Positions 2,224 to 56,692 of a stretch of 64,000 nt of DNA are shown here, one piece after another. Each line of letters begins with the position of its first letter. The first letter of the stretch is position 1. The notes under the pieces are model-generated. The model ran no database searches. It was not told the DNA's origin and saw only the letters and a list, made by a program, of their open reading frames with translations. Where the stretch lies: the NCBI GenBank assembly GCA_964352335.1, contig CAYGRO010000003.1:24798-88797 (forward strand), given 5' to 3'. A program made the translations under genes and the position numbers. Origin of the DNA: an uncultured Gammaproteobacteria bacterium. GTDB lineage: Bacteria > Patescibacteriota > Patescibacteriia > VMEV01 > CAYQCH01.

Positions 2224-3303
2224 TTATAATTCGACAAAAGTATTTTCCCCAATAACCAATTTATGGCCACTAGGAAGTGAGTGAATCGTTGAATGAACTG
2301 TACAGTTTTGACCTAAAATACTATCAACAATTCGTTCTTTTGTATCTATTGAAACACCATCCATTACAATAGAATGTTCAATTTCTGCTCGTTTAAAATT
2401 TGCATTATTTCCAATGGATGTATACGGACCGATATACGTATCTTCAATTATACAATTTTCACCAATAACAACTGGCCCACGAACTACAACATTTTTTCCA
2501 ATAACAGAACCTTTTCCAATTTGTACTAACCCTTGGATAATAGAATCTTCATGTACAGCTCCCTCAATTTTATGTTCAATTGTATGCATGACTAAACTAT
2601 TTCCCTCTAATAGTGCTTCTGGTTTTCCTGTATCTTTCCACCAACCAGTTACTTCGCTTACCGTCACTTTATGACCATTATCGATTAACCATTGGTGAGC
2701 AGGAGGTGGATAGTATTCGGCAATTGAACTATTCCCTTTTACTACAGGCTCTACATTTTCCATTGCCTCAAAAATTTCTGGACGATAAAAATAAATGGCC
2801 GTTACCGCTAAATTGCTAATAAATTCTTGTGGTTTTTCTACTGTTTTTGTAACAAGTCCATTTTCTACAACAGCTACTCCAAATCTTTCTGGATTATCTA
2901 CTTTTGTTACTAAAAGATGGGCAGCAGAATCTGATGCAAGAAATTCGTCATAATATTTTTTTATCCCGCCAGAAAGAATATTATCACCACCAAAAAGTAA
3001 AAAAGGTTCATTTCCTAATAATTCTTTGGCTAATAAAATTGGATACATCATTCCATTTGGTTCTGGTTGTTCAATATATTGAATGTTCAATCCCCATTTT
3101 GAACCATCTCCAATCGCATTGGGAATTTCTTTATCTCCTTTATTTAAATTGATAATCACATCTTTGATTCCACAGTCAGCAATATCATCTAAAACACGAA
3201 AAATCATGGGTTTCCCCGCGATCGGAATAAGATGTTTATTGATTGTATTGGTAATTGGCCGTAATCGAGTACCGCGACCACCAGCTAGGACAAGTGCTTT
3301 CAT
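2224..3303 (-). CDS. Sugar-phosphate nucleotidyltransferase, long glucose-1-phosphate thymidylyltransferase-like form with a C-terminal left-handed beta-helix
   Basis: The N-terminus MKALVLAGGRGTRLRPIT matches the G-x-G-T-R-L nucleotidyltransferase signature. The C-terminus has hexapeptide-repeat character. The gene sits next to rfbB. Confidence 0.75.
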   Translation of the reverse strand: MKALVLAGGRGTRLRPITNTINKHLIPIAGKPMIFRVLDDIADCGIKDVIINLNKGDKEIPNAIGDGSKWGLNIQYIEQPEPNGMMYPILLAKELLGNEPFLLFGGDNILSGGIKKYYDEFLASDSAAHLLVTKVDNPERFGVAVVENGLVTKTVEKPQEFISNLAVTAIYFYRPEIFEAMENVEPVVKGNSSIAEYYPPPAHQWLIDNGHKVTVSEVTGWWKDTGKPEALLEGNSLVMHTIEHKIEGAVHEDSIIQGLVQIGKGSVIGKNVVVRGPVVIGENCIIEDTYIGPYTSIGNNANFKRAEIEHSIVMDGVSIDTKERIVDSILGQNCTVHSTIHSLPSGHKLVIGENTFVEL

Positions 3304-3310
3304 ATAGATA

Positions 3311-3350
3311 TGATTCGAATAGACGAATTAATACTAATCTACGAATTTAC
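3311..3350. promoter_or_regulatory. Copy of the conserved AATCTACGAAT-containing ~35-nt motif, 5-45 nt upstream of the rmlA-like start codon
   Basis: The minus-sense sequence attcgtagattagtattaattcgtctattcgaatca matches copies at 20503-20590, 29771-29805, 30133-30175 and 30829-30866. Confidence 0.4.
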
Positions 3351-3395
3351 TGCGAATATACGAATAAAACCACAGAAAAGGCCTAATTGTCAACT

Positions 3396-10739: not shown

Positions 10740-10993
10740 TTTGTTAATTTAGTTGACCCTTCTAAATGAACGTTAATAAAATTAGGGATTTCTATTTATC
10801 ACGCTCGCCGCGAGGGCCTTCATTTTTGGGCGGGCAAAAACGAAGCAAAAACCCGCTGGGGGAACTTGAGAGCTTCTTGCATGTTTTGATCATCTATTTT
10901 CTTCTCAGAAGCGCAATTCCCCCAGACCCCATAAGCACATTATTGATTTTCCCTCTATTGGAAGATCTCATTGTAATTGTAATTGTAATTGTA

Positions 10994-11058
10994 CTCCTCC
11001 CCTTGCCTTTCGACCTCGAGCTCAAGACCTGAGATGTGAAGGAGGGAGTTAGGGGGGG
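10994..11058. repeat. GC-rich palindromic intergenic repeat (ctcctcccc...cgacctcgagctca...ggagggag...ggggggg) at the left edge of GC island A; the short tandem repeat (ttgtaa)x4 at ~10973-10993 lies just upstream of the span
   Basis: Shares the ccctcc/ggaggg arms and the internal ctcgagctca core with the copy at 29065-29186. Confidence 0.5.
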
Positions 11059-11188
11059 TAATTTTAAAAGCAAAGACCCCAGAAGAAAAGTGAATAGCGA
11101 TTTGTGTTAGCCAATTGGCGTGACATTTCGCATCTCTTCTTCTGGGGCTTACGGGGCCTGCGCACGACGAACCGGGTGGTTCACGGGC

Positions 11189-11365
11189 TCAGGCGATCTT
11201 GTTGCCGTTGGGCTTGGCGTTCTTGCTCGCGTCGGGGTTGGCCCGTCGGCGGGTCGCGAGAACTTGGTCCAACAGAAAATCGGAACGACCATCGTTGAGG
11301 GCTGCCTCGACCCGCGAGCGGGGCGGCAGGGACTTCTTGATGGCCACTTGGGTGCTTGCTTTCAT
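11189..11365 (-). CDS. Hypothetical 58-aa basic protein in GC-rich island A (below the ORF-track size cutoff)
   Basis: My own translation reads MKASTQVAIKKSLPPRSRVEAALNDGRSDFLLDQVLATRRRANPDASKNAKPNGNKIA. It is preceded by a perfect GGAGGA Shine-Dalgarno and a TTGACA -35-like hexamer, and sits in a ~60% GC context. Confidence 0.3.
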   Translation of the reverse strand: MKASTQVAIKKSLPPRSRVEAALNDGRSDFLLDQVLATRRRANPDASKNAKPNGNKIA

Positions 11366-11427
11366 GTTTAGACTCCTCCTTTGTCTGATGACAGATTACC
11401 CCAAAACAGGATAATTGTCAACCGTGG

Positions 11428-11907
11428 CTACGCACCACAGTTGTCTTGGTCCGACATCCTATCTAGCACATGCAACAAGTGCATGTAGACAGCCATCCGG
11501 TATCTGTCGACGTGGTCCTGCTCCAAGGAGTGACAGAAGTACAGCTGGTCTCCTAGTCCCGCCATGTGGAAGAACAGCAGGATGCCTTCTCGGTGATTCG
11601 GATCAACGATCTCGTCGATCAAGAAAATGCGCTGGTGCATGACACCTTGCGCAGTCCTCATGATCAACGTCACTGGCTCGAAAGTCAAAGTCGGGACACG
11701 CGGGTCACCAACCCAAGCCGTTGTCAGCAAGATATCAGGAGGTGGAAACCTATCCACACCGCCGATCCCCGCCTGAATGACCACCTCACCAATCTCGTGA
11801 CTGGTTCCAGCGGTCTTGTTGTACTCAGCAACGCATCGCCGAAGCGAACGAAGGAGCTCACGGAAGACGGCTCGCCCTCCAATGATTGTAACTCGAATTT
11901 CTGCCAC
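11428..11907 (-). CDS. Hypothetical 159-aa protein in GC-rich island A, with an apparent GTG start
   Basis: Longest minus-strand ORF in the GC-rich segment, with a GAGGGG about 7 nt upstream. No recognisable family. High-GC DNA also yields spurious ORFs, so this call is tentative. Confidence 0.3.
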   Translation of the reverse strand: MAEIRVTIIGGRAVFRELLRSLRRCVAEYNKTAGTSHEIGEVVIQAGIGGVDRFPPPDILLTTAWVGDPRVPTLTFEPVTLIMRTAQGVMHQRIFLIDEIVDPNHREGILLFFHMAGLGDQLYFCHSLEQDHVDRYRMAVYMHLLHVLDRMSDQDNCGA

Positions 11908-12067
11908 TTTATATCCCCTCAGAATAGTGGTTTAATGTATTGCCAGCAAACCATTTGCTAGCTGATAAAACAAGTCCTCTGGGAACAGAGAACTTGCTGT
12001 ATCAGTAAAGATTACTATAGCACAAAAAGCCACTTTAGTCAATAAGTTATTGACTTTATTTGATCTT

Positions 12068-17509: not shown

Positions 17510-17624
17510 AGCTTTACTGAAAAAACTTTTGATAGACTGAATACCCCATATCTAGCAAGATAAGTAATACAATGAGCATGATAATTGCTTTTGCTTTTTG
17601 GTTAGACATGGGTTTATCACATAC

Positions 17625-17726
17625 CTCTCCCCAGCCCTCTCCTTAGCAAGGAGAGGGAGGAACAGAGATCGAGTACTTCCCCCTCCTAGAGTAGGAGGGG
17701 GTTAGGGGGAGGTAACATTACCCCCC
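17625..17726. repeat. GC-rich palindromic intergenic repeat (ccctctccttagcaaggagaggg ... ccccctcctagagtaggaggggg ttaggggg) overlapping the 3' end of secA
   Basis: About 40 nt are nearly identical to the copy at 21688-21786. Confidence 0.55.
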
Positions 17727-20459: not shown

Positions 20460-20502
20460 AAATAGGGTTGGTCGATAAAGACTGAGTTTATGGATTTAGT
20501 GT

Positions 20503-20590
20503 GATGCCAATCTACGAATGCATTCTAATCTGCGAATAATGACAAATCTACGAATAGCTTATTCGTAGATTCGTTTACATTTGTAGATTC
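20503..20590. promoter_or_regulatory. Cluster of AATCTACGAAT motif copies upstream of secA, including a 12-bp perfect inverted repeat separated by 3 nt (aatctacgaata-gct-tattcgtagatt, 20545-20571)
   Basis: Read directly from the sequence. It shares the 29-mer GATTAG(A/T)AT(G/A)CATTCG(T/C)AGATTGGCATCA with the lexA upstream region. Confidence 0.45.
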
Positions 20591-21687: not shown

Positions 21688-21786
21688 ACATTACCCCCTC
21701 CCAACCTCCCCCTTAGCAAAGGGGAGGAGGAATAACTTTCATGTTCTTCCCCCTCCTAGCATAGGAGGGGGCTAGGGGGTGGTAAA
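21688..21786. repeat. GC-rich palindromic intergenic repeat between the murG-murC stop and the murB start
   Basis: Contains cctcccccttagcaaaggggaggagg and ccccctcctagcataggaggggg ctagggggtggta. It is a near-copy of the 17625-17726 element. Confidence 0.55.
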
Positions 21787-21789: not shown

Positions 21790-24288
21790 TCATCCTAATT
21801 CCTCTGCTAATCGATAAATATCTCCTGCGCCCATCATTAAGACCACATCATTGGGCTCGATAAGTGAATTTAACGCTGTTTTTGTTTCTTGTAAAGAACC
21901 AGAGGCAATCACTTTTGGACAACGACCACGCTTTTTAATGGCATCTACAAGCATTTGAGCATTCATTTCTTCTTTGGTAATTGTTTCTCGGCCTGCAACA
22001 GCATGAATATCTGGAATAACGGTGACATCAGCAAGGTCAAATGAAGCAACAAAATCATCAAATAATGCTTGAGTTCTATGTCTTGTATGCGCTTGAAAAA
22101 CAGCAATCAACCGTTGACCAGGATAAAATTCTTTTGCTCCTTTAATTGTGGCATGAACCGCTGTTGGGTGGTGAGCATAATCACTAATAATCACAGCTTG
22201 TTTATATTGCCCCAGAATTTGAAACCGTCGCCATGTTCCTTTAAAGCTAGATAAAGCATCACAAATTTCTTGTGGCTTATGCCCGACAATGGATAAAGCA
22301 ACAGCAATAGATGCTAATGCATTTTCAATATTAAATGTTCCTGGCAGTGGAAATGAGCAAGTCGCAACTTTGTCATTATATTGATAAAGAGATAATTCTT
22401 GTTTCTGATCTTTTACCACTACTTCTTTTAACCATAAGTCATTCTCTTTTTTAGACGAGAAAGCGAAAATATTTTTTCCTGATAAATCTAGTTTTTTTGT
22501 TTGTGTATCTTCATCGTTTATTACAAGAAGCCCGTCCTCTGGTAATTTATCTACCATTTTCTGAAAAGCGGCATAATAGTTTTCTTCTGTTTTATAATAA
22601 TCTAAATGATCAGGAACAATATTTGTAATAACAAGTACATCTGGATCTATTTCTAAAAAATGTTCTTTAAACTCATCTCCTTCTACAACTAAAATATCAC
22701 TTTTCCCTGCTCTAAAATTACATTTCCAATCGTTTACAACACTTCCAACCATTGCAGAAGGGTCACATCCCATTTGGATTAAGATATGTGAAATCATCGC
22801 TGTCGTTGTTGTTTTTCCTTTATTCCCTGCAACAACAATCGTATGATAATCCTTTGATAATTGCCCAACCACTTGAAAATTAGTCATCATTTTTATCCCT
22901 AGCTCTTTTGCTTTTACAAGCTCTGGATTATCTAATGGAATAGCATCATTATAGACAATAAGATCAATATCTTCTGTCACATTAGTTGATTCATGCCCCT
23001 TAAGCACAATTGCTCCAGCTTGAGCTAATTGATCTGTAATCATATTTTGTGACAAATCTGAACCTGAAACAACTTTATGATGATGCAAAAAGAAATAGGC
23101 AATATACGAAATACCAATCCCACCAATACCAACGAAATGAACTTTTTTAATGGTTGAAAGATCTAATTGTTTATTCACTTCTTCTTGCTCTTCTCCTTCT
23201 TCAATCGCTTCCACCTTTTGATGAGAAAGTGTTTCTACAATGATATTTGCAATTTTGCTACTAGCTTCTTTTTGATAAAAACTATGAATTTTCTTTCCAT
23301 ATTCTGCTAATTTTTCTTTATCTGAAATAATTTTTTTCAATTGAGCCGCAAATAATTGAGGACTCAATGAGGTTTGATCTAAAATATGAGCTGCTTTTTC
23401 ATTCCATAAAATCTCTGCATTATCTTCTTGATGAGAATTTGGAATTGGAATAATAACAGCAGGTTTTTTTAAGGCTGATAATTCTAAAAAGGTCCCAAGC
23501 CCACCCCGTGTAACAACAAGGTCTGCTTTATCATAGGCTTCTGCCATTTCATCTGTTAAAAATTCTTTTTGTCTATAATTATCTGCTTGAATAGTATTTC
23601 CTTTATCTTTTCCTGTGATATGAATAATATTGGCAAATTTTGTCAGCTCCTCTAACCCCCCCCAAACAAATTCATTCAATGCCTGTGCCCCTGTTCCACC
23701 ACCAAAAATGAATAGAACGGGAAGATTATTATCAAAAGTAAAAGCAGTTGTTATTGGGGTAAAAATTTCTTGTCGTACAGGACCACCTGTTACCGTTGTT
23801 TTTCCTTTTTTATAATCTTGCTCAGAAGCAGGAAAAGTCACACTAATCGTTTTGGCGAATGGAGACATTAATTTATTTGCCAAACCTGGACGGATATCTA
23901 ATTGATGTATATGACTTGGAATTTTTTTAAGCCAGGCCATCCAAACCAATGGAACAGCAATAAAGCCACCAGCGGTAATAATCGCATTTGGTTTTAATTC
24001 ATTCAGTAATTTCCATGCCTTAATACAAGCGTAAATAAGTAAAAATGGCGAAACAATATTTCGTAGGCTAAAAAAACGATCCAACTTAACCATTGGTAAT
24101 GTATAAAAACTAATCTGCTTTTGTGCTATTAATTTTCTTTCTGGACCATTTTTTGTCCCTACCCAAAGATAAGACCACTTAGAATATGATGACTTAAGCT
24201 CTTCGTATACAGCTAAAAGCGGTGTTACAGGACCAATTGTTCCACCACCTGCAAATAGAATTGTTTTTTTATCTTCATTCATAAGCAA
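21790..24288 (-). CDS. murG-murC: Fused MurG (N-terminal glycosyltransferase) and MurC (C-terminal UDP-N-acetylmuramate--L-alanine ligase) protein
   Basis: Residues ~1-360 carry the MurG glycine-rich loop (FAGGGTIGPVTP) and GT-B fold. Residues ~375-832 carry MurC motifs (HFVGIGGIGISYIA...; VAGNKGKTTTTAMISHIL). Confidence 0.85.
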   Translation of the reverse strand: MLMNEDKKTILFAGGGTIGPVTPLLAVYEELKSSYSKWSYLWVGTKNGPERKLIAQKQISFYTLPMVKLDRFFSLRNIVSPFLLIYACIKAWKLLNELKPNAIITAGGFIAVPLVWMAWLKKIPSHIHQLDIRPGLANKLMSPFAKTISVTFPASEQDYKKGKTTVTGGPVRQEIFTPITTAFTFDNNLPVLFIFGGGTGAQALNEFVWGGLEELTKFANIIHITGKDKGNTIQADNYRQKEFLTDEMAEAYDKADLVVTRGGLGTFLELSALKKPAVIIPIPNSHQEDNAEILWNEKAAHILDQTSLSPQLFAAQLKKIISDKEKLAEYGKKIHSFYQKEASSKIANIIVETLSHQKVEAIEEGEEQEEVNKQLDLSTIKKVHFVGIGGIGISYIAYFFLHHHKVVSGSDLSQNMITDQLAQAGAIVLKGHESTNVTEDIDLIVYNDAIPLDNPELVKAKELGIKMMTNFQVVGQLSKDYHTIVVAGNKGKTTTTAMISHILIQMGCDPSAMVGSVVNDWKCNFRAGKSDILVVEGDEFKEHFLEIDPDVLVITNIVPDHLDYYKTEENYYAAFQKMVDKLPEDGLLVINDEDTQTKKLDLSGKNIFAFSSKKENDLWLKEVVVKDQKQELSLYQYNDKVATCSFPLPGTFNIENALASIAVALSIVGHKPQEICDALSSFKGTWRRFQILGQYKQAVIISDYAHHPTAVHATIKGAKEFYPGQRLIAVFQAHTRHRTQALFDDFVASFDLADVTVIPDIHAVAGRETITKEEMNAQMLVDAIKKRGRCPKVIASGSLQETKTALNSLIEPNDVVLMMGAGDIYRLAEELG

Positions 24289-27792: not shown

Positions 27793-29064
27793 CTAAGTAA
27801 ACTGATGAGGCTCTTTAAACCCTCCAACTTTTCGTTTTAAACGAGTATTTATAATACTTGCTCTTTGTAAAGCCTTTTCTCCATAACGATTATTAATCTT
27901 ATCTTGAGCTTCTAAAAGATTTCTATGACGTCTTTCTATACCTAAATAAGGTAATTGCATTCCATCTTTTTTAAGCATGGTTGCTCCAATACCAATTAAT
28001 CGTACAGGTAAACGAAAGAACCATTTATCTAACAAACTTTTGGCTATTTTATAGATATCATAACCATCATCAACATATGTTTTTAGTGTTTTCCCTTCAC
28101 CTGAACTTGTCATATCTTCCCATCGCAAATGCACCCAAATACGACGAGCTTCGTAACCATCTTTTCTTAGTCTTCTCCCAACCTTTTCTGATAACCGCAA
28201 AAGCATACGATAAACCTCATCTCTATTTACTGTATTTTGACTTAATGTATAGGTATGTCCAATTGATTTAGCAGGAGCCACCTCTTCTACATAGGGAACA
28301 ATTGTATGATCAATCCCTTTACCCATATCTGAAAGCATTTTTCCATTATTAGGCCCAAAGACTCGTTGTAATTCTTCTACAGGATAATTACCTAATTGCC
28401 GTAATGTTCTTATCCCCATATCGAATAAACGAATTTTTAAGCGATTACCAATACCTGGGATATCGGTTAATTCAACCCAATCTAAAACATGTCGTAATTG
28501 ATCTGGCTCAATAACAATTAATCCATCTGGCTTTTTCATGCTAGAAGCTAATTTAGACATCATTCTATTTGGAGCAATACCAATAGAACAAGTTAAAATA
28601 TCACCTATTTCTTCTTTAAGATTTTGTTTCATTTTATGAGCGATATCTATAGCCCCTTGATAATCTTTGACCCAGCCCGTTAAATCCATGAACAACTCAT
28701 CTACACTATAGACTTCTATACGATCACTATATCGCTTACCAATATTGATAAATTTTTGCGTAATTTCTTGGTACTTTGTTGGATCACCGTCTATAAACAT
28801 CAAATGAGGACAAAGTTTTAAGGCCTCTGAGGTCTTCATAGCTGTTTTTAGGCCATAGGCTTTTGCTTCTATAGAACAAGCAACAATAACACTTCTAGAC
28901 GCAGGAGAACCACCAATAGCAATAGGTTTACCACGCAAAAAAGGATTGCATTGCTGTTCAGCCGTTGCAAAATAGGAATTGAAATCGATATGTAATATAC
29001 AATTGACCCCGTATAACTCGTTACCTCGCTTACGGGGCAAGCCATTGATATGTGACATATGCAT
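27793..29064 (-). CDS. dinB: Y-family DNA polymerase (DNA polymerase IV-like)
   Basis: The N-terminal motif ILHIDFNSYFATAEQQCNPFLRGKPIAIGG matches the DinB/UmuC catalytic core. Confidence 0.8.
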   Translation of the reverse strand: MHMSHINGLPRKRGNELYGVNCILHIDFNSYFATAEQQCNPFLRGKPIAIGGSPASRSVIVACSIEAKAYGLKTAMKTSEALKLCPHLMFIDGDPTKYQEITQKFINIGKRYSDRIEVYSVDELFMDLTGWVKDYQGAIDIAHKMKQNLKEEIGDILTCSIGIAPNRMMSKLASSMKKPDGLIVIEPDQLRHVLDWVELTDIPGIGNRLKIRLFDMGIRTLRQLGNYPVEELQRVFGPNNGKMLSDMGKGIDHTIVPYVEEVAPAKSIGHTYTLSQNTVNRDEVYRMLLRLSEKVGRRLRKDGYEARRIWVHLRWEDMTSSGEGKTLKTYVDDGYDIYKIAKSLLDKWFFRLPVRLIGIGATMLKKDGMQLPYLGIERRHRNLLEAQDKINNRYGEKALQRASIINTRLKRKVGGFKEPHQFT

Positions 29065-29186
29065 ACCTCCCCCTAACCCCCTCCTTCACAGGAGGGGGAA
29101 GTATAAACAATTAAATACTACCTTCCCCTCCCATTCGGCTCGAGCTCATGGCCGAGAGCTAATTTAGGAGGGGATTGAGGGGTGGT
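29065..29186. repeat. GC-rich palindromic intergenic repeat (ccccctccttcacaggaggggg ... cccctcccattcggctcgagctcatggccgagagc ... ggaggggattgaggggtggta)
   Basis: Shares the ctcgagctca core with the 10994-11058 copy and the ggagggg-tgaggggtggta arm with the 21688-21786 copy. Confidence 0.55.
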
Positions 29187-29189
29187 ATG

Positions 29190-29438
29190 TTACTCCTGAT
29201 AATGTTCAACAAGATACCACTGCAAACTATCTGTATGAAGCTCTAAACGAAAAAACTCTGTGTCTGTAGCTACAGAGAAAAAATAAATACGTTCTTGACC
29301 ATTATGAGTTGAGTGGACATTTAAAATTTGCTTTATTTGATAAAGATTTTTTTCCCAACGTATTAATTTGGGGTGAACCTTCTTTTCATCAAAAAGAGCA
29401 ACGACTTTAATACGGTCTTGAAATTTTTCGTGAAGCAT
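29190..29438 (-). CDS. Hypothetical 82-aa protein immediately upstream of dinB (possible polymerase accessory factor)
   Basis: ORF only, with no recognisable motif. Its position between lexA and a Y-family polymerase is the sole basis for the functional guess. Confidence 0.3.
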   Translation of the reverse strand: MLHEKFQDRIKVVALFDEKKVHPKLIRWEKNLYQIKQILNVHSTHNGQERIYFFSVATDTEFFRLELHTDSLQWYLVEHYQE

Positions 29439-29439: not shown

Positions 29440-30174
29440 AAGTTTTATTTAGGGAATAAAAAAACTTGCCAAAATTTAGAAGCAAGTTTTTTTATAAACA
29501 AGGTTACAGGTCGTTTTCAATCATCTTAAGGTTTAAAAGAACAAAAGATAACGTTAGATTGTAAACAACCTGTAAGGTTGTGCCAACAAAGTCGGAATTC
29601 TTGTACCTCTTATTAACTGAAAAAAAGGATTTAAAACAGAGAATAAGTCGGCCAATAAAGAATTTCGGTTCCCCTTCTCTTACCCGTCCCCAAATAAGAA
29701 AAGATGAATTGAATCGTTAGCAAGTGGTGTGGAGATGAAAAGATCTGTAACCTTGTTTATGTATGATGCAAATCTACGAATGAATACTAATCCTCCTTCG
29801 CTCTTGAGGAGCTTCGGCGGACAAGTCTGCAAATATTCAACGAATGAAAGGCATCATACTAATTTACTTTCTATTTCATTGTACGAGAGGAATGAAATAG
29901 GAGCAGTAAGAAACTTAGTGAGTGAAACTATACATCGCAACCTTATCTACAACTCTGCCAAGAAGTTGACGATAAAATGCTTTTGTTTTTCTTTTTTTCA
30001 TATTTTTGTTTTTCTAGACTAGGGTAAGGGCTGAAATAAGCAGCAATAAACAGGACCTGTCCAACCCATGGACCCGGATCATAGAGAATTTAGTTATTAG
30101 CGAGTTAAATTATTTTATGACAGTAGGAGGATGCGAATCTACGAATAAATACTAATCTACAAATATCCTACGAA
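29440..30174. other. 735-bp non-coding region between lexA and the dinB operon, carrying two copies of the AATCTACGAAT motif (29771-29805, 30133-30175) and a conserved hairpin (cgctcttgaggagcttcg); candidate ncRNA or regulatory region
   Basis: No convincing ORF. The 97-aa ORF at 29729-30022 has poor composition. Contains the hairpin aaaaacttgccaaaatttagaagcaagttttttt at 29460-29494 and a second copy of the hairpin motif at 31036-31058. Confidence 0.35.
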
Positions 30175-30801
30175 TTACATTGAGAGTTGTGGTGAAAACG
30201 ACCGGATCAAACCTTTAACAACCCCTTGAATAATTGGATCTCTTACAAATATTGGTGACATGGTTGAATTAGCAGGCTGTAAACGGATTTTATCTTTTTC
30301 TCGGTAGAATCGCTTAAGTGTTGCATAAGCATTATCGAGAAGGGCAACAACGATATCTCCATTTCTTGGACTTGGGTTTCTTTCTACAATTACGTAATCT
30401 CCGTCTAAAATTCCATCTTCAATCATTGATTCTCCTTTTACACGCAAGACATAGGAATTAGCAGGGTCGTCTACAAGAGTAATAGGAACAGCAATCGTTT
30501 CTCTTTCTTCTAAAGCTTCAATTGGACTACCTGCAGTAATGAGACCAACAAATGGTAAAGAAATAGACGGTGGTGCTGGTAGAGCTTTTGGTGTTAATTC
30601 AATAGAGCGAGCTTCATTATGATTTGAGGTGACATACCCTTTTTCTTCTAGAGCTTTCATATACTGATGAATACTTGAAGGAGATGAAAGATCAAATGCT
30701 TCTGCGATTTCTCTATAACTTGGCATATAGCTAAAGTCTTGGTAGAAGCTAATGAGAAAGTCGAGAATTTGCTTTTGTTTCTTTGTTAATTGAGCTGACA
30801 T
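30175..30801 (-). CDS. lexA: LexA repressor (S24 peptidase)
   Basis: N-terminal winged HTH (LTKKQKQILDFLISFYQDFSYMPSYREIAEAF) and the C-terminal Ser/Lys dyad (GESMIEDG ... TLKRF). The start was set to the ATG at 30801 (MSAQL); the ORF-track start is a TTG. Confidence 0.85.
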   Translation of the reverse strand: MSAQLTKKQKQILDFLISFYQDFSYMPSYREIAEAFDLSSPSSIHQYMKALEEKGYVTSNHNEARSIELTPKALPAPPSISLPFVGLITAGSPIEALEERETIAVPITLVDDPANSYVLRVKGESMIEDGILDGDYVIVERNPSPRNGDIVVALLDNAYATLKRFYREKDKIRLQPANSTMSPIFVRDPIIQGVVKGLIRSFSPQLSM

Positions 30802-30828
30802 ATGGTTTATGTTTTTCACAGAGAGGTA

Positions 30829-30866
30829 TGATGCCAATCTGCGAATGTATACTAATCTACAAATAA
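30829..30866. promoter_or_regulatory. Conserved ~35-nt motif (minus-sense GATTAGTATACATTCGCAGATTGGCATCATAC) ending about 24 nt upstream of the lexA ATG; candidate operator or promoter element
   Basis: Near-identical to the copies at 20503-20535 (secA upstream) and 29771-29805. Confidence 0.45.
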
Positions 30867-31089
30867 GATATGAATATTCTTTTTATTGCACCTACTAGAG
30901 TGCTGAGATCTGTTTTTCTTAACTCAATGATTGAATTATATATGAACAAAACATGAACGTCAAGTGTATTTAATTTTGGCTAAGGTAAGATCTATCTCTA
31001 TTTTTGTTCATTTTTTGTTTGTAGTTATCCACAGGTCTTCGCTCCTTGAGGAGCTTCGACCTGCACAGCATTCTTTAACCAAAACAAAA

Positions 31090-35189: not shown

Positions 35190-35230
35190 GCAAGGCCCCC
35201 ACCTCTCAGGAAGATGTGGGGGTTTTGTCT
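35190..35230 (+). terminator. Rho-independent terminator after the giant gene
   Basis: The sequence gcaaggcccccacctctcaggaagatgtgggggttttgtc is a GC hairpin followed by a T-run. Confidence 0.55.
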
Positions 35231-35478
35231 TGGCTCGTCGCCTCACTCGGAGGAAGCTTAAGACTTGCGTCATTGCTAAACGTAACCAAGGCGATACATA
35301 GACCAATGAGAATGAAGACATACCCCCCAGTGATCAGGGGATACTCTCCAGGAAGATCCTTTTCTCCGCCCACGATGAGACAGATAAAGGTTATTAATCC
35401 AACGAGACACCAGATCAGAAAAACGACCATGGTGTAGTACATCTTTTCGTCAGGAATATGAGACTTCTTTTGCGGCAT
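35206..35478 (-). CDS. Small membrane protein (90 aa, two TM helices) at the edge of GC island B
   Basis: ORF with two hydrophobic helices and intermediate GC content. Coding status is uncertain. Confidence 0.3.
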   Translation of the reverse strand: MPQKKSHIPDEKMYYTMVVFLIWCLVGLITFICLIVGGEKDLPGEYPLITGGYVFILIGLCIALVTFSNDASLKLPPSEATSQDKTPTSS

Positions 35479-35605
35479 GTCTAGCTCCTTTGCCTAAACA
35501 AGGTTTACCATACTTTTTTACAAAATGAAACGAGCTAGCAAGACAGTCCGCTCCCGTGAGGGTGCATAATGTCGAGCTAGCTCGTTGTGGGCCAATTACG
35601 CTGGC

Positions 35606-37277
35606 TTAGGGCTTGTCCCGCGCCGTGACCAGGGTCCGGGCCGGGTCGAAGGTCCCGGGGTTGAGAGGGTCTTCCCTTCGCTCGATTGCGAAGAGAAAGT
35701 CCTCACCCAGAGTGGGCGTCCCGTTCTTGATGAACATGTGGCTATCCCTCACGTCGGAGGAACGACCATCGGGCATGAACGACCACTTGTTGTCGTCCCC
35801 CAAGTCCGCGTCGTTGAATGGCAACGTGTGCCGGCCAACGGGGTTGGTGGGGTCGACGTTCAAGCGCGTCGTGCCTTCGTCGAAGGGGAACGGATGCGTT
35901 CCCAGCTGTTGATTGGCCGCATCGCGACGCACCGTGAGCGTGGGAATGACCATCGTCCCGTAGTCCGGTGGACCGAACCAGGCGGGACTGTCGGTGTTGG
36001 TGCACCGCCAGATCGACGAGACCGTGGGAAGCACCCACTTGCCTGCTGCCACCTGGTACGGAATCCCGAACCGCATGTGGGTGTCCCAGATACGGTTGGT
36101 GATATTGCCGGAGCCGTCCAGTCGAACGTGAACGGTAGGGTTACCGTCGAGCGTACGCGACTTGAACGTCTGCGTCATCCCGTTGAAGGTCGCGGTGATG
36201 GTGAAGAACGAGTTGATCCCGTTACCTCCCTTCACGTCGCGCCCCTCGATGAGGATGGGCTGGCCGTTGAAGTCGTTGACCACCGCGGCCTTGTTGGCAT
36301 CGTCGATGGACATCGTACACTGCGTGGTCACCTCCGCCATGCTCGCGAGGTCATAGACCCGGAACCGACGCCGCTCGCCCATCGAGATGAACGAGGGAGC
36401 CTGGATGACCAGCCCCGTGGAAGGAAGTGTGGGAGAGGAAGTCAGTGTCAGCTCATTGCTGACGATGACCTCATTCCAGCCCTGTTGGACGGTAGAGGTT
36501 CCACCGCCAGCGTCGGTGAAGGTCTTGGTCAAGGTGGTCTGAGCACCGACCCCGAAGGAGCGGACCTTGATCTGCTCGTTGTTGAGACGAGCGACGACCT
36601 TGCCGTCCGCATCGACAGCGGCAGCCCCAGACACGACCTCGTAGAAGACGAGGGTCCTGTTGACCGAGGAGGCGTTGTCGGTGTGAACCAGGTTGGTACC
36701 CAGCTCCGCACCGGTCCCGACGTCGATCTGAGCCGGCGCCGAGAGCGTGATGCTCTTGAGCAAGTCCGTCGTGGGGATGGGGTTGCTCCCACCACCGCCA
36801 CCGCCTCCAGTGGAAGCGACGACGACCTCCACGATGTCGGTGATCCTCTCGGTGATCGTCTTGCCGTTCTTCGTCACGGTGAACGTGATCGAAACCTTGC
36901 TAGGCGCAACGGCCAGGATCAGCCCCGTGTTGTCCAACACCTGAACGATGTTGGGGTCGGAGCTATTGACGGAGTCAGCCGTAACCTTCTCCGTCTGGCT
37001 CGTTCCCTTGAAGATCGCCACGATCTCCAGCTGCTGCTGGGTACCCTGGACGAGCTGGAAGGCACGAGGGGTCACCCCGATACCGACGAACTCGAGGTTC
37101 GCAGTGTTGGGGTTGTTGGTGGGTGGAGTGTTCGTCGGTCCACCACCGCTCGGGTTGGCACCTCCGGAGCCAGCGAGCTGGTTACCCTTGGGGCGACGAC
37201 GCGAGTCGCAGGCCTGGAAGATCATCGCCGAAACGATGACGAAGATGATCAGAAACAGGGTGCGCAATCCACGCATA
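35606..37277 (-). CDS. GC-rich putative lipoprotein with Big_2-like Ig domains, likely horizontally acquired
   Basis: Lipobox at MRGLRTLFLIIFVIVSAMIFQAC, preceded by AGGAGGTG. A Big_2-like segment (VTPRAFQLVQGTQQQLEIVAIFKGTSQTEKVTADSVNSSDPNIVQV) and G/T/S-rich linkers are present. The GC content is far above the flanks. The opposite-strand 576-aa ORF is Arg-rich antisense noise. Confidence 0.5.
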
Positions 37278-37470
37278 GTACACCTCCTAGGTGTTTGAAA
37301 CGTTGTTTGATATGAAAAAAGCACTCGCTAGCAATATGCCAGCAAATACTCTCTCCCCTTCTATTCTCTCATTACAGTGGCGCATTTAAGCGTATAATGA
37401 AAGAATAGATTAAATTACAATAAAAACGGCTTTTTGTCAAGCCATAAAGCCCCTAATAAAATAGCTAATA

Positions 37471-43888: not shown

Positions 43889-44734
43889 CTAGTCGAGGTA
43901 GGCCATCATCGCTTCGAGGAATTTCCGTAACTGTTCAGCCCGGTCAGCTCCTCGGCGGCTGATCTCTTCGTGGTCGTGCTCTTCCTTGTCATCGTTGGTG
44001 ATCAAGCAGAGCATCAAAGCACGAACACCTAGATCTCGGTACAACCGAGCAAGGTACATTTCCCACTGCCCGCTCATTCCGATGACTTCTGCCCCCCAAC
44101 TCTTGAAGAGAGGTTTTTCCGCCCACCGCCCCTCGAGATGAGGTCCACGGCAGATCATGTGAGTGGCAAGCTTACCACCCAGCTCCTCTATGGCGACACG
44201 AGAGAGCTCATGATCAACACCGTCTTCTGGGGCAGCGAAATCGTCGCCGGCAAAAGCCATTGGCGGGCTGTAGAACGAAGCACCAAGGAAAGCCCTTGGC
44301 ACAGCGATGTCCCCAACCACGAGATCCTCGGAAAGACTCCCGCAACCGCTCGTCGAGATCAAGTAGCGGACTCCTGCGTGGAAGAGCATCTCGATTGAGA
44401 GGCGTGCGAGCTTCATGCTTGGGTCTTGGTAGCCATGGATTCGGCTACAAATGACAACATCAAGCCCCTTAACCTCCATATAGCCCAGCCACTTACCGTG
44501 ACCATCAACACCATCGAGGTTCGCGACTTCTTCCAAGCCGGGAACGTCTTGAAGACGGATCTTCACCTTGAAGTCCTTGTCTTCGAAAGCATCACCCCAG
44601 CCACTACCTGGAATGATGGCAACTGCTGGGCTGCTCCCCTTTGGAATCTGCAGAAGATCCCGAAGAGCTGCCCCGGCTTTCTCTGCCGACTCGAGGCAAG
44701 CTCGATTTACACCTTTTTCCATAAACACATCCAA
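43889..44734 (-). CDS. Purine nucleoside phosphorylase / MTA phosphorylase-family enzyme (PNP family 2), GC-rich and likely horizontally acquired
   Basis: IIPGSGWG phosphate-binding loop and VIGMSGQWEMYLARLYRDLGVRALMLCLITND, which matches the PNP/MTAP signature GMSTVPEVIVARH...SLITN. The GC content is far above that of the neighbouring genes. Confidence 0.6.
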   Translation of the reverse strand: MDVFMEKGVNRACLESAEKAGAALRDLLQIPKGSSPAVAIIPGSGWGDAFEDKDFKVKIRLQDVPGLEEVANLDGVDGHGKWLGYMEVKGLDVVICSRIHGYQDPSMKLARLSIEMLFHAGVRYLISTSGCGSLSEDLVVGDIAVPRAFLGASFYSPPMAFAGDDFAAPEDGVDHELSRVAIEELGGKLATHMICRGPHLEGRWAEKPLFKSWGAEVIGMSGQWEMYLARLYRDLGVRALMLCLITNDDKEEHDHEEISRRGADRAEQLRKFLEAMMAYLD

Positions 44735-44892: not shown

Positions 44893-46332
44893 ATGTCTAA
44901 AGAAAAAGTCCAAAAAATAGCTGATCAGGAGTATAAATATGGCTTTGTAAGCGATATTGAAATGGATATTGCTCCAAAAGGCTTAAATGAAGATACGATT
45001 AGACTCATTTCTCAAAAGAAGAATGAGCCTGATTTTATGTTGGAATTTAGACTCAAAGCTTATAAACATTGGCTTACACAAACGGAGCCAAAATGGTCTA
45101 ACCTTACCTACCCTCCTATTGATTACCAAGAAATCTCGTATTATGCCGCTCCAACCAAAAAGAAGGAGCTAAAATCTTTAGACGAAGTAGATCCAGAAAT
45201 TTTAGAAACCTTTAAAAAATTAGGCATTTCTTTAGATGAACAAAAACGATTATCCAATGTTGCCGTAGATGCCGTGATGGATAGTGTTTCTGTCGCGACA
45301 ACCTTTAAAGATAAATTAGCCAAAGCCGGTGTTATTTTTTGTTCTATTTCAGAAGCGATTCAAACTCATCCTGAATTAGTAAAAAAATATCTAGGAACTG
45401 TTGTCCCCTATCATGATAATTTTTTTGCGACATTAAATTCAGCAACGTTTACCGACGGATCTTTTGTTTATATTCCAAAAGGTGTTCGTTGCCCAATGGA
45501 ATTATCTACCTACTTTAGAATCAATGCTGCCAATACCGGTCAATTTGAACGCACACTTATTATTGCCGACGAAGGTTCGCATGTAAGTTACCTCGAAGGT
45601 TGTACAGCTCCAATGCGAGATGAAAATCAATTGCATGCTGCTGTTGTAGAATTGATCGCTTTGAAGGATGCAGAAATCAAATACTCAACCGTACAGAACT
45701 GGTACCCCGGTGACGAAAACGGAAAAGGTGGTATTTATAATTTTGTTACGAAGCGTGGATTATGTCTTGGTGAGAATTCAAAAATTTCTTGGACGCAAGT
45801 AGAAACTGGTTCTGCAATTACATGGAAGTACCCTAGTTGCATTCTGCGTGGAGATAATTCTAAAGGAGAATTTTACTCTGTTGCTTTAACAAACAATATG
45901 CAACAAGCGGACACAGGAACAAAAATGATTCATGTAGGAAAAAATACAAAGAGCACAATCATTTCAAAAGGTATTTCTGCTGGAAAAAGCAAGAACACTT
46001 ATCGTGGAATGGTTAAGGTTGCCAAGAATGCATCAAATACAAGAAACTTCACACAATGTGATTCTTTATTGATTGGATCTGAATGTACCGCCGACACCTT
46101 CCCTAAAGTGGATGTAAAAAATGCAGACTCAATGGTTGAACATGAAGCAACAACATCAAAAATTTCTGATGAACAATTATTCTACCTGCAACAACGGGGA
46201 TTAAACCCAGAAGACGCAGCAAGCTTGATTGTCAACGGATTTTGTAAAGATGTCTTTGACCAACTCCCAATGGAATTTGCAGCCGAAGCTCATCAATTAT
46301 TAGCACTTAAATTAGAAGGGACTATTGGATAA
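44893..46332 (+). CDS. sufB: Fe-S cluster assembly protein SufB
   Basis: 479 aa with full-length SufB similarity (…[14 protein letters not shown]…). Confidence 0.9.
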
Positions 46333-46347
46333 GAAATCAAAGGGTCA

Positions 46348-46405
46348 AAGCGTCAGAGCGTCAAAGAAAATAACTTTGTCGCTCTGACGCTTTGACGCAC
46401 TGACC
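46348..46405. repeat. Long near-perfect palindrome (gtcaaagcgtcagagcg tcaaagaaaataactttg tcgctctgacgctttgac) in the sufB-sufC intergenic region
   Basis: Read directly from the sequence. The ~17-bp stem suggests an mRNA processing or stability hairpin, or an intra-operon attenuator. Confidence 0.5.
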
Positions 46406-46413: not shown

Positions 46414-47178
46414 ATGTTACAAATCAAAAATCTCCATATTCAAACAGAAGGAAAAGAAATCCTTAAAGGTCTTGATCTCACAATCAAGGCTGGTGAGGTG
46501 CATGCCATTATGGGACCAAATGGTGCTGGTAAAAGCACATTGGCCTCTGTTCTTGCTGGAAAAGATCAATATGAACTCACAGACGGATCTATTTCTTTTG
46601 AAAACAATGACTTAACAAAGCTTTCTCCGGAAGAACGTTCTTTAGCTGGCATCTTCCTTGCATTCCAATACCCTGTCGAAATCCCAGGAGTGAGTAATCT
46701 TGAATTCTTTAAATCAATTGTAAACCAACATCGTATTCACAGAGGAGAAGATGCTATGGATACATTTCAATTTCAAGCATTCATGAAAGAAAAGCTAGCT
46801 GAATTTGGAATGGACGATAAACTCATGGATAGAAACTTAAACGAAGGATTCTCTGGTGGAGAAAAGAAAAAGAATGAGTTATTACAAATGGCATTACTAA
46901 ATCCAAAGTTAAAAATTCTTGACGAAACAGATTCAGGATTAGATGTAGATGCATTAAAAACAGTTGCAGAAGGTGTGAATAAATTACAATCACCTGAGTC
47001 AGCAACATTAGTGATCACACATTATAATCGTATTCTTGATTACTTGAATATCGATTTCGTACATATTATGGTTGAAGGAAAAATTGTTGCAACGGGTGGA
47101 ATAGAGTTAGCAAAAGAAATTGAAACTGATGGTTATAAAAAGTATCTTCCTAAGAAGCCTTTGACTGTTCTCAATTAA
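46414..47178 (+). CDS. sufC: Fe-S cluster assembly ATPase SufC
   Basis: ABC ATPase Walker A (GPNGAGKST), signature (FSGGEKKK) and Walker B (ILDETDSGLD). Confidence 0.9.
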   Translation: MLQIKNLHIQTEGKEILKGLDLTIKAGEVHAIMGPNGAGKSTLASVLAGKDQYELTDGSISFENNDLTKLSPEERSLAGIFLAFQYPVEIPGVSNLEFFKSIVNQHRIHRGEDAMDTFQFQAFMKEKLAEFGMDDKLMDRNLNEGFSGGEKKKNELLQMALLNPKLKILDETDSGLDVDALKTVAEGVNKLQSPESATLVITHYNRILDYLNIDFVHIMVEGKIVATGGIELAKEIETDGYKKYLPKKPLTVLN

Positions 47179-53600: not shown

Positions 53601-53653
53601 TTGAACATGAACACGCGAACTTATACCATAAAGGGAAACACGGTAAGCACTAA
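50615..53653 (+). CDS. Large surface protein, paralog 1 of 3 (N-terminal TM, conserved beta domain, LamG/concanavalin-like lectin domain, acidic P/E/T-rich linker, C-terminal domain and C-terminal TM anchor)
   Basis: 1012 aa. LamG signature FDGYIDEMAAFNRALTPTEVQDIYLRG. Gly-run GGGGGGGS. C-terminal helix LLALQIVIAIGLFLGLFILF followed by a basic tail. Confidence 0.6.
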   Translation: MKKQKRKKAEKVEHYSPSKKEFHLLSSPAPAFVHFFLKIGHFFHWCFHLLLPDNFKEDPGFTDHVKLFFMTRHYSYLRKFFVVWMFVITTTIGVTGYNIYQARELGAANATFPFDISGSYTFDSARVNVTGSEAVLLSVDQIDNDNTATGFAGGTFSDTNFATSHVGLDATGLTNGTGTFTSRIINAGGSVAWNQLDWTPERPIQKELPNNSGIESAYSTGNMSMTGNVLLMHLNETSGTITDSSVNGNTATGTGITYASQGIFGTGIDLTGNGDKIESSAFNYVFGTEITLAGWFRFTGPGTGSPRILEISRLGDSNTHALAPDGDGSLRAWAVCNNGSRVGSADDPTNYNDGQWHHFVYTYSNPTGIIYVDGVQTATASNACANLDDGSELILGAISDVSGNFTNAQHEFDGYIDEMAAFNRALTPTEVQDIYLRGALRQQIQVRTCDDAICDTEVFVGSDGTNGTFFSELLNSTTGLPSLAMPLPNNQYFQYQVTLETDDNVTNSRLSNVTIGPSHLDGGSPTIQNTSGIAYTSSLDSFTETLGGGHTGTTTYQLSNNGANFYYFNGGSWSPAVSSVQSNTAGIIGANITTFVNDVGTGNFFFRAFLGSNLGTQVIELDQIELTFDTGGGGGGGGSSKIFFLPPSAPGDGFQVIINEKAEQTTDQIVDLTFNAGNEVSLVELSNEQSFIESITLGLTPTIEWDLCSVSGKPVSRDCPDGEYTVYANFLTSLGQPPSPIVSDTITLGEEEEEVVEEEPVVTEPETETEETPDEEVIIEQEQNEPPITPAPSEPEETTEQPEDETQEPSVIEEEIVEENQQEPTPIQPSPEQTPPQPPINQNDPTTAPPSEVNEGQIIQTVTQEIGTNNYLLTVSTGEELEQNEKVFVQFLSGALAGQSIVLDEYVANDQEIFFYTPLQVNPSPGDKVKVSGGTVFKQETFVSPKTESTVSDFKVSAPEKPSLLALQIVIAIGLFLGLFILFSLWKQNTALTTLIEHEHANLYHKGKHGKH

Positions 53654-56600: not shown

Positions 56601-56692
56601 TCTTCCGATTATGGAAACAAAACACAACGCTTACAACACTCATCGAAGCTGAGCACAAAGAATTGTTTATGAAGAAAAGAAAGCGTAAATAA
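53654..56692 (+). CDS. Large surface protein, paralog 2 of 3
   Basis: 1012 aa, colinear with paralog 1 (TFPFDLAGNYTFD...VDQIDDDNTATGFAGGTFSDT...; LIDEFSVFDRALAPAEISDHYLRG). The linker and C-terminus are divergent. Confidence 0.6.
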   Translation: MYMKKKHHRPNHNHPVIAFLLKTSHFFHWSFHVLLPDFISKVPSAKLNRLLFLKTRYFSKMRTLVIGWLIMSISILSVTGYQFAKAPIIKAANTTFPFDLAGNYTFDTDRIAIGSSLATLPSVDQIDDDNTATGFAGGTFSDTAFSGGFLQLDATGLTNTTGLFTSRVIDAGGDVAWSSVDWTPQRPYQKDLPDSGSAETAYTAGNIDMNGNLALLHADETAGATTILDSSGNANNFSCTTCPASGGTGRFNTTLEFNGGETLEDADGETYLNGLTAFSLGFWVKSDVVGTDRGFFIGTAPSGSDDGLTIRYDDAGANGGGNDVIKAGITTTTGTTQVESSTNIQTTDWQHIVLTWTSGSALSLYVNGQLDTPTSAGATVGGAISTLDRAILGRGGKDTAAGAGWLGLIDEFSVFDRALAPAEISDHYLRGATRLGIQVRSCDDAICDIEPFIGPDGTASTFYGEGLNTTNALPSTTTLSSIVNNRYFQYQIVLDSDDSITTPQSSSFSFAPSHLDAGGPTIQNATGITYQTIDGFVETLGGGNTGTTRYQVSNNGTNFYYFNGLNWVTALSAAQSNPAGVINSNATTIATDIGTGDFFFRAFLNSALGQQIVELDEIEVIFDTSSNNNGGGGSSLLFFSQPVPPTNGFALTINEEATVTESPLVSLGFNAGSDISLVEISNEPNFLESITLTYSNPLSWNLCSSKGEAQTECIDGEYTVYAKFYKSFGQAPSVVVQDTIALLSLENIDAIDKNTEEENPTEEKLSPIEIPEDNTPPTEEPLIVDAENQEENETILSPPSEIVEQEQKKEQELLQPESTQEKELNLPTSPQTPSEQPSQPIPQKTQTLPQTQVVQQVSQEIGTSNFLISTTLPAGFDENESFVISFTSGALAGQSVLIDKYVANDQGILLFTELKTSPTIGDLFQLFSGRFYEEKTFVSPQLPPSSPVIIQYDSFTDQRSFFWFLFGLLIVTITGFGLLVLVLFRLWKQNTTLTTLIEAEHKELFMKKRKRK

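Follow-up and report, generated by a model that had tools for sequence, protein, structure and literature searches.

The 64-kb window analysed here (the whole 64,000-nt stretch of contig CAYGRO010000003.1; ~35% GC) contains secA, murB, a murG-murC fusion, murD, ftsW, dinB, lexA, dnaX and suf genes. Its SecA homologues place it in the Patescibacteria (Candidate Phyla Radiation, CPR), the best named matches, at ~59% identity, coming from Magasanikbacteria, Uhrbacteria and Buchananbacteria. Short stop-to-start spacers between minus-strand genes are occupied by GC-rich palindromic repeats that all start 2-5 nt from the stop codon, the three main elements being 93-124 nt long. An initial annotation had described them as one dispersed intergenic family at six or seven sites, similar to repetitive extragenic palindromes (REPs) or miniature inverted-repeat transposable elements (MITEs) and possibly doubling as transcription terminators or mRNA stabilisers. 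We find that the repeats have a three-block sequence design, that the third block covaries with both arms of a hairpin, that they are widely distributed among bacteria and that copies differ between relatives. We judge, with a probability of roughly 0.8, that they are BoxC-type intrastrand purine-triplex motifs acting, if at all, at the level of DNA.

Repeat units with the layout of an intrastrand triplex

With the G-rich side taken as the top strand, the repeat unit is ~38 nt (~40 nt) long and reads (T)TCCCCCTCC(TT)-nnn-(AA)GGAGGGGG-nTA-GGGGG(A/T)GG-TA or, with its pyrimidine (Y) block written out, CCCCCTCC(TT)-loop-(AA)GGAGGGGG-nTA-GGGGG(A/T)GG-TA. The blocks follow one another on a single strand: the pyrimidine block CCCCCTCC, its Watson-Crick purine partner (R) GGAGGGGG, a 3-nt linker and a second purine block, GGGGG(A/T)GG. 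Blocks 1 and 2 give an 8-10 bp hairpin (DNA fold ~-11 kcal/mol, z ~-3), and the third block, which finds no complement within a single unit, mirrors the G-arm. Pyrimidine, purine, antiparallel purine is the block order of a class II purine-motif intrastrand triplex, with G·G-C, A·A-T or T·A-T triads. The initial annotation lumped three kinds of hairpin together and missed this mirror block, which is what places the family among the intrastrand triplex motifs (BoxC/PIT/TM).

A triplex-motif scan using 8-nt blocks and allowing at most one mismatch gave eight hits in the window: seven units with zero Hoogsteen mismatches (Table 1) and one weak hit at 62122-62163. The chance level, taken from 30 Markov-simulated windows, was a mean of 0.07 hits per window. 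The terminal motif had 23 matches in the window against 5.7 expected, and no class I motif (reverse block order) was found in the 64 kb. Units occur at a density of ~1 per 9 kb, and six of the seven are arranged as three inverted doublets. The tails point outward in all three, and each doublet combines one YTA with one NTG linker (TTA/CTG, CTA/TTG and TTA/TTG). Five compact units are recovered by a covariance model at E = 2e-21 to 8.6e-16, all five being in its training set, and the doublet copies at 17622 and 21692 share 76% identity over 94 nt.

Set against the class II definition of ITxF (Holder et al, 2015), the seven units show the block order pyrimidine, purine, reverse-Hoogsteen (RH) purine, and their third block, for which one mismatch is allowed with stems longer than 7 nt, has zero Hoogsteen mismatches in 7/7. 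The size limits are 6-15 nt for the stem and 1-6 nt for the loops. Here stems measure 8 nt, six units have a second loop of 3 nt, and the first loop spans nominally 6-7 nt, or 3 nt with the TT/AA pairs added to the stem; a loop 1 of 35 nt at 29124 and a loop 2 of 13 nt at 63232 lie above the limit. Their initial description as a family of GC-rich palindromes dispersed between the genes of an AT-rich genome is supported.

Table 1. Triplex-motif units, doublets and other hairpins of the window (blocks as Y / R / linker / third block; WC, Watson-Crick; H, Hoogsteen)
Feature	Position	Strand	Composition	Scores	Context	Found by
Inverted doublet, tails outward	17622-17714		units 17620-17660(-) + 17676-17716(+)	RNA fold -51.7 kcal/mol, z = -4.0	secA stop 17718-17720; start of 31-codon open reading frame (ORF) 17609	covariance model, triplex scan
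Exemplar unit	17679-17712	+	Y CCCCCTCC 17679-17686; loop 17687-17693; R GGAGGGGG 17694-17701; TTA loop 17702-17704; mirror (reverse-Hoogsteen) block GGGGGAGG 17705-17712	0 WC, 0 H mismatches; 58.9 bits; DNA hairpin -11 kcal/mol, z = -3.1		triplex scan
Variant unit, arm and tail both altered	17624-17657	-	CCCTCTCC / GGAGAGGG / CTG / GGGAGAGG	0 WC, 0 H mismatches; 54 bits		triplex scan
Inverted doublet	21692-21784		units 21690-21730(-) + 21746-21786(+)	RNA fold -55.3 kcal/mol, z = -4.3	murG-murC fusion stop 21790-21792; murB start 21677	covariance model, triplex scan
Unit	21749-21782	+	CCCCCTCC / GGAGGGGG / CTA / GGGGGTGG; T faces A-T pair	0 H mismatches; 60.9 bits		triplex scan
Reversed-polarity unit	21694-21727	-	CCTCCCCT / GGGGGAGG / TTG / GGAGGGGG; tail still mirrors arm	1 WC, 0 H mismatches; 46.4 bits		triplex scan
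Inverted doublet	29064-29187		units 29062-29101(-) + 29121-29189(+)	RNA fold -65.5 kcal/mol, z = -5.95	stop of 82-aa ORF 29190-29192; dinB start 29058	covariance model, triplex scan
Canonical unit	29066-29098	-	CCCCCTCC / GGAGGGGG / TTA / GGGGGAGG	0 H mismatches; 49.9 bits		triplex scan
Loop-expanded unit	29124-29185	+	TCCCCTCC / GGAGGGGA / TTG / AGGGGTGG; loop 1 holds a 35-nt palindromic insert with core CTCGAGCTCA	0 WC, 0 H mismatches; 28.7 bits		triplex scan
Diverged single unit	63232-63277 (63232-63275 in the scan)	+	TCTCC(T)CCC / GGGGGAGA / 13-nt loop / AGAGGGGG-TA; perfect mirror tail	one C-arm position unmatched to G-arm (1 Y mismatch), 0 H mismatches; covariance model matches hairpin only, E = 0.05	traG-like gene stop 63280-63282; next ORF start 63214	triplex scan
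Degenerate unit	10994-11062	+	loop insert CTCGAGCTCA	two mismatches each in Y and RH blocks; 8.9 bits, E = 0.31		covariance model
Separate hairpin cluster, not a triplex motif	62036-62165		perfect 20-nt palindrome CCTGCCTGCCGGCAGGCAGG and inverted repeat of ~65 nt	RNA fold -61.4 kcal/mol, z = -5.7	downstream of dnaX	
Second hairpin family	62905-62947 (62900-62950)		TCATTCCCGC-loop-GCGGGAAT, nested palindrome in the loop			

Four of the sites first listed (17625-17726, 21688-21786, 29065-29186 and 63229-63280) belong to this one family, as does 10994-11058 in degenerate form; those at 62036-62165 and 62905-62947 are other hairpins. The degenerate unit is absent from the triplex scan at up to one mismatch. 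The core that it was said to share with the copy at 29065 is confirmed as a loop insert, CTCGAGCTCA, common to 10994-11062 and 29121-29189. The degenerate unit adjoins a 53-64% GC island (11080-11920).

As the initial annotation had assumed, the copies are not part of coding sequences. Mechanical ORF calls do run into repeats (a TTG 'start' of murB at 21719, within the doublet, and the small ORFs 10766-11032 and 62967-63293, which begin or end within units), and comparison with a relative, contig L115, favours ATG 21677 for murB and ATG 29058 for dinB.

Recurrence and covariation across phyla

A species-representative genome collection was searched with one exact pattern of 19 specified bases, GGAGGGGGNTAGGGGGNGGTA, so that the resulting sample is seeded by this pattern and is no census. 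At least 114 contigs from more than 15 phyla matched; all counts and hosts given for other genomes, here and below, are among the matches listed. The hosts include, by record title, the patescibacterial Peribacteria, Nomurabacteria, Saccharibacteria and Parcubacteria; the Bacteroidota Pontibacter, Dysgonomonas, Chitinophaga and Rudanella; Ignavibacteria, Zixibacteria, Nitrospirales, Acidobacteriota, Cyanobacteria (Chroococcus, Aphanothece) and Desulfuromonadales; Gamma- and Alphaproteobacteria, Planctomycetes, Chloroflexi, Armatimonadota, Gemmatimonadota and Binatia; and the metagenome-assembled genome (MAG) of a Methanoregula. GC content at these loci ranges from 23% to 71%. Loops vary by lineage (TGTTTTTA in Pontibacter, TTAGTAA in Peribacteria, TTTATAA in Ignavibacteria), and stems and tail are conserved. 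No Rfam covariance model matched the elements at its gathering threshold or at E <= 5, and a full-text literature search for the repeat's sequence strings returned only irrelevant papers. To our knowledge, and within the literature searched, this triplex-motif class has not been reported from Patescibacteria before.

The hairpin, for which the initial annotation had expected a conserved secondary structure, is conserved on alignment. Among 138 distinct model-aligned sequences, 99% of cells are paired, a figure that counts for less in favour of the fold because the alignment was fitted to the model and so leans towards the modelled hairpin. Double-sided changes occur at seven of the ten pairs (63 cells), and none of 500 shuffles reached these values. 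In the 8-bp core the double changes exchange C-G and U-A, with one G-C at one pair as the sole exception, so the 3′ arm stays homopurine; base-pair flips occur at the loop-proximal pairs.

The third block follows the arm. In canonical units the A-T pair is faced by A in 60 cases and by T in 51, the two bases that the purine motif permits there, by C in 7 and never by G. Arm and tail in the window's variants are paired as GGAGAGGG with GGGAGAGG, GGGGGAGG with GGAGGGGG and GGAGGGGA with AGGGGTGG. Elsewhere, 86 unique units carry an outermost 8-nt arm unlike the searched pattern. A perfect mirror tail is present in 63 of these 86, whereas 2000 arm-tail permutations averaged 14.9 and never exceeded 26; the count is not one of independent events, since the 86 include register shifts of the canonical arm as well as copies that share a genome. 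The canonical arm fits only 22 of the 86 tails, and the clearly distinct arms GGGGAGGG, AGGGGAGA, GGGGAAGG, GGAGAAGG and GGGGGAGG each have their own mirror tail. Pairing of the outer stem with a partner unit was ruled out as the cause of tail conservation: singlets predominate in other genomes, a complementary outer arm lying within 250 nt in only 18 of 101 copies. Since polymerase copying yields inverted or direct repeats and not mirror repeats, we take the arm-tail mirror pattern as a probable sign that a three-stranded fold is under selection. That the third block covaries across genomes provides comparative evidence for such a conserved fold beyond the hairpin.

Another use of the same G-runs would be a G-quadruplex (G4), with the R and RH blocks folding into a regulatory switch. 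There are at least four G-runs (GG-A-GGGGG-TTA-GGGGG-A-GG), and annealing in K+ allows an analogous methanogen repeat to interconvert between triplex and G4 (PMC8044849). However, a G4 needs no complementary C-arm and requires neither an A/T at the mirrored position nor arm-tail covariation, and the methanogen oligonucleotides default to hairpin/triplex, with one variant never switching (PMC8044849). We regard a G4 element as very improbable.

Three further resemblances were considered. A mimic of the Shine-Dalgarno (SD)/anti-SD pair (CCTCCTTA is like the 16S rRNA 3′ end and AAGGAGG is the consensus SD) was rejected as the main explanation because it leaves the T-variant tail, the mirror covariation and the lack of orientation bias unaccounted for. 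An integron attC site (GTTAGGG, like GTTRRRY) was ruled out, the flanking genes being housekeeping genes and the base before TAG variable. The telomere-like GGGTTAGGG is taken as a coincidence of the TTA linker.

Probable assignment to the BoxC/PIT/TM_ECO class

Model R1, whose training units included no E. coli sequence, recovers at full length the two BoxC/TM_ECO units that lie between the E. coli K-12 genes hrpB and mrcB (26.1 and 16.8 bits), numbered 1 and 2 in Table 1 of PMC4666352. This recovery identifies the class as BoxC/PIT/TM_ECO. We therefore assign the window repeats to the BoxC-type intrastrand triplex motifs, as a variant in sequence of a class already described.

Holder et al (2015) described intrastrand triplex motifs across 5246 prokaryotic genomes, notably TM_ECO (PMC4666352), described in the 1990s as the BoxC repeat (Bachellier) and by Hoyne & Maher (2000) as the PIT element. 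TM_ECO follows the pattern CCCTCNCCC N3-6 GGGNGAGGG N3 GGGNGAGGG, with TTA as second loop in type A and CCG, CTG or TCG in type B. E. coli K-12 has 23 copies per 4.6 Mb, all intergenic and without orientation bias; five inverted pairs in E. coli always combine type A with type B, and no association with transposons, phages or plasmids was found (PMC4666352). The window repeats share this context, being intergenic, without strand bias, arranged as two-linker inverted pairs and without adjacent mobility genes. In PMC4666352, the TM_ECO single strand is reported to fold into a very stable triplex by circular dichroism (CD) and nuclear magnetic resonance, PIT elements to stall DNA polymerase in vitro, and TM loci to be rearranged more often than control loci among E. 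coli strains. The strict TM_ECO pattern matches E. coli (L118) and two non-proteobacterial MAG contigs (L063 and L079), in both of which it adjoins the CCCCCTCC variant.

Several points weigh against this reading. The strict TM_ECO pattern, with its 9-nt blocks CCCTCNCCC and so on, has no match in the window, so the kinship with E. coli BoxC could be convergence on the same fold, and triplex folding of the window's variant is a prediction from its sequence. Even in E. coli, according to PMC4666352, the triplex was seen only on isolated single strands while the duplex stayed B-form, in vivo dimethyl sulphate footprinting did not detect it, and the link to instability is correlative.

Gain, loss and mobility

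A close relative, L115 (86% SecA identity), has a syntenic dinB-to-secA block with no unit in 22.7 kb. At the junction of the 82-aa ORF and dinB it reads TAAtATG, where the window reads TAAca-(124-nt doublet)-tgcatATG, and its murG/murC-to-murB spacer is 43 unrelated nt. A second relative, L117 (75% identity), has a single unit that runs from the secA stop codon on and belongs to a different subfamily from those in the window; the genes downstream of secA differ among the window, L115 and L117. Because L115 lacks elements at orthologous junctions, copies have been gained or lost between these relatives, gain in the window's lineage being the more parsimonious course. Two metagenome scans for empty and filled sites in close strains returned no match in one case and an unrelated organism in the other.

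Such a pattern might be produced by non-autonomous elements of REP/REPIN or MITE type, mobilised in trans by a transposase (a REP-associated tyrosine transposase (RAYT)/HUH, an IS630-like or another enzyme) that uses the palindromes as recognition hairpins. Dispersed copies, REPIN-like inverted doublets, lineage-specific loops on conserved stems, presence or absence between relatives and in-frame copies in methionyl-tRNA synthetase (MetRS) and leucyl-tRNA synthetase (LeuRS) genes elsewhere would all suit it, and the nested insert common to two copies suggests copying of whole units. The in-frame units lie at L084:2402-2442, just 5′ of the WPADVHVVGKD motif of MetRS in a Patescibacteria-like MAG, and at L002:2845-2881 in LeuRS of a Bacteroidales MAG.

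Against mobilisation stand several results. Read directly, the sequences at the borders of the three doublets show no consistent target-site duplication, which the initial annotation had suggested looking for. In the doublets at 17622 and 21692 the outer arms form imperfect inverted repeats (12/15 and 10/15 Watson-Crick pairs), and the flanks hold no consistent direct repeat of the fixed length that, with terminal inverted repeats, would mark a MITE. The GTAG or CGTC tag of REPs is absent from the foot of the palindrome; TAG falls in the linker, where the base 5′ of it varies (70 T, 32 C, 10 A, 6 G). Among the major ORFs of the 64-kb window none encodes a transposase, an integrase or a HUH domain; enrichment of a gene family beside the at least 114 copies listed was not seen (nor was it in Holder et al, PMC4666352), and no Y1/HUH transposase flanked by repeats occurs in the window or near those copies. 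The pattern GGAGGGGGNTAGGGGGNGGTA has no match in 2.9 million viral contigs. A recognition hairpin would, moreover, leave the arm-tail mirroring unexplained. The repeats are REP-like in the broad sense, as initially proposed; classing them as REPs in the strict sense or as MITEs is not supported, and mobilisation by a transposase in trans is unlikely.

Two related candidates were also discarded. A transposon bounded by two units was ruled out, as no unit pair encloses an ORF and the GC islands are not unit-flanked. As for a RAYT-linked repeat family, the REP/RAYT literature does not contain this sequence, and the GGGGWSAS motif fits one variant tail only.

Gene context and RNA-level roles

The initial placement at gene ends or between serial genes is correct, the copies filling stop-to-start spacers on the minus strand. 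Together with the very stable predicted RNA hairpins at these gene ends (-52 to -66 kcal/mol, z = -4 to -6), a start 2-5 nt past the stop codon in every window copy invites an explanation at the RNA level, by which the repeats would be intrinsic terminators, 3′-end mRNA protectors or insulators of translation between cistrons. Stabilisation of mRNA is a known role of E. coli REPs, and the terminal GGAGG of doublet 29064-29187 lies 7 nt upstream of the likely dinB ATG (29058), for which it may incidentally serve as ribosome-binding site.

The terminator or stabiliser role proposed initially was nevertheless not supported. The repeats have no T-run and none is terminator-like in the scan, although ordinary terminators were found in the same region. 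Two doublets separate co-directional genes by a short spacer (murG/murC then murB; the 82-aa ORF then dinB), and termination after murG/murC would cut off murB if the two are co-transcribed, as the short spacer suggests. Orientation relative to flanking genes, scored from crude ORF calls for 65 copies elsewhere, shows no significant bias (++ 26, -- 18, convergent 13, divergent 8). PIT elements in E. coli had no promoter or terminator activity and no effect on conjugation in vivo, according to the account of Hoyne & Maher (2002) in PMC4666352. Purine-motif triplexes reportedly do not form in RNA, and the conserved mirror block would then have no role there. We consider an RNA-level function improbable.

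Other hairpins and repeats in the window

The cluster at 62036-62165 gives only the single weak triplex-like hit (62122-62163), with mismatches and a 15-nt loop. The TCATTCCCGC/GCGGGAAT hairpin recurs in unrelated phyla (L117:12821-12842, L068:5444-5465 and L090:2067-2088), and in L117 it directly adjoins the triplex unit downstream of secA.

AT-rich repeats with TACGAAT...ATTCGTA inverted repeats lie at 3295-3357, 20486-20571, 29761-29792, 30113-30175 and 30813-30875, and at L117:100-205; the perfect palindrome AATCTACGAATAgctTATTCGTAGATT at 20545-20571 is an example. Copies stand on both sides of lexA (30175-30837) and upstream of secA and of the 82-aa-ORF/dinB pair, and L117 has a similar inverted repeat before dinB. 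This repeat is a candidate LexA operator (SOS box) of the lineage.

Islands of 53-64% GC in this 35% GC genome carry ORFs at 11080-11920, 35200-37330, 43889-44734 and in parts of 54100-54900. Among these, the ORF at 43889-44734 encodes a PNP_UDP_1 phosphorylase and that at 35606-37324 a 572-aa protein with a weak Big_2 domain, and those at 11120-11907 have no assignment. Triplex units do not bound the islands, even if the degenerate unit adjoins the first of them (11080-11920). The islands may represent horizontally acquired DNA or chimeric assembly.

A hairpin at 46337-46403, with 30-nt arms (TCAAAGGGTCAAAGCGTCAGAGCGTCAAAG and its complement, 87% complementary) and a 7-nt loop, is unrelated to the triplex family and sits between sufB (44893-46332) and the suf ABC ATPase gene (46414-47178). 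A 40-nt stretch at 59992-60031, 94 nt from tRNA-Gln(CTG) (60086-60157, minus strand), is 88% identical to the 3′ part of that gene; neither ARAGORN nor Rfam calls a tRNA there, and it is probably a truncated tRNA duplicate. Three tandem paralogues of ~1012 aa each at 50615-59733 have Laminin_G_3/pentaxin-like lectin domains and are likely surface proteins expanded via tandem duplication.

Discussion

As BoxC-type motifs, the repeats would operate when the unit strand becomes single-stranded during replication or repair, in a transcription bubble or through supercoil-driven extrusion. Blocks 1 and 2 would then pair as the 8-10 bp hairpin, whose major groove would take up the third block in antiparallel orientation by means of reverse-Hoogsteen triads (G·G-C and A·A-T or T·A-T). 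Prone to form such structures, the elements would persist or spread with no dedicated transposase and would promote local rearrangement. The data agree with such an orientation-independent element at the DNA level. In read-through transcripts the inverted doublets would add a strong hairpin (-52 to -66 kcal/mol), and because of this an effect on mRNA processing or downstream translation is conceivable.

BoxC/PIT/TM elements are among the few bacterial repeat classes without a known function or means of spread. The class now extends to CPR bacteria and many other phyla in one nearly invariant 8-nt variant. In a small genome its copies fill whole stop-to-start spacers of co-directional genes and differ between close relatives. 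For annotation, repeat sites should not carry terminator or MITE labels, and spurious ORF extensions are possible. More speculatively, the ability to form a triplex might itself be selected, or might be the basis of self-propagation through core replication and repair alone, in more than 15 bacterial phyla and possibly some archaea. We think this doubtful; if propagation through core functions were true, minimal genomes would be the best place to find the machinery behind a class unexplained since the 1990s. Patescibacteria genomes are typically ~1 Mb, and in the one studied here copies that were probably gained recently stand between essential genes, with no transposase in the 64-kb window.

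Comparison with known systems

Like the GC clusters of yeast mitochondria (PMC4478555), the window repeats are GC-rich palindromes that have invaded a compact AT-rich genome. Those clusters and the Rickettsia palindromic elements differ from them in having unrelated sequences and hosts and no triplex design. The Rickettsia elements sit in-frame inside genes, as do some triplex units elsewhere. With REPs, bacterial interspersed mosaic elements and REPINs the repeats share the form of short GC-rich extragenic palindromes, present as singlets and inverted doublets in many copies per genome. Unlike them, REPs bear a tetranucleotide tag (GTAG or CGTC), are usually accompanied by a cognate RAYT gene and have neither homopurine/homopyrimidine asymmetry nor a mirror block.

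The potential quadruplex-forming sequence (PQS)/triplex repeats of Methanomicrobiaceae (PMC8044849) are likewise G/C-rich, intergenic and repeated, and combine a hairpin with an antiparallel G-rich third strand, but their blocks are 10 nt long and follow the reverse order RH-R-Y (class I). Their triplex is backed by CD and S1 nuclease probing and can be converted to a G-quadruplex (PMC8044849). BoxC/PIT/TM_ECO shares most with the window repeats: the Y-R-RH order of class II, a 3-nt second loop that is often TTA, a length of ~35-40 nt, intergenic location in either orientation, frequent two-linker inverted pairs and no linked mobility genes. The differences concern the blocks, which are 8 nt in the window (CCCCCTCC/GGAGGGGG) and 9 nt in BoxC/TM_ECO (CCCTCNCCC/GGGNGAGGG); the host, a Patescibacteria genome of ~35% GC, unlike E. 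coli; the density, ~1 unit per 9 kb in the window against 23 per 4.6 Mb in E. coli K-12; and the doublets, all tail-outward in the window, whereas the E. coli pairs checked in Table 1 of PMC4666352 show both arrangements. Three-way covariation across phyla and recent gains in a minimal genome are useful additions to what is known of this class, rather than a new kind of system.

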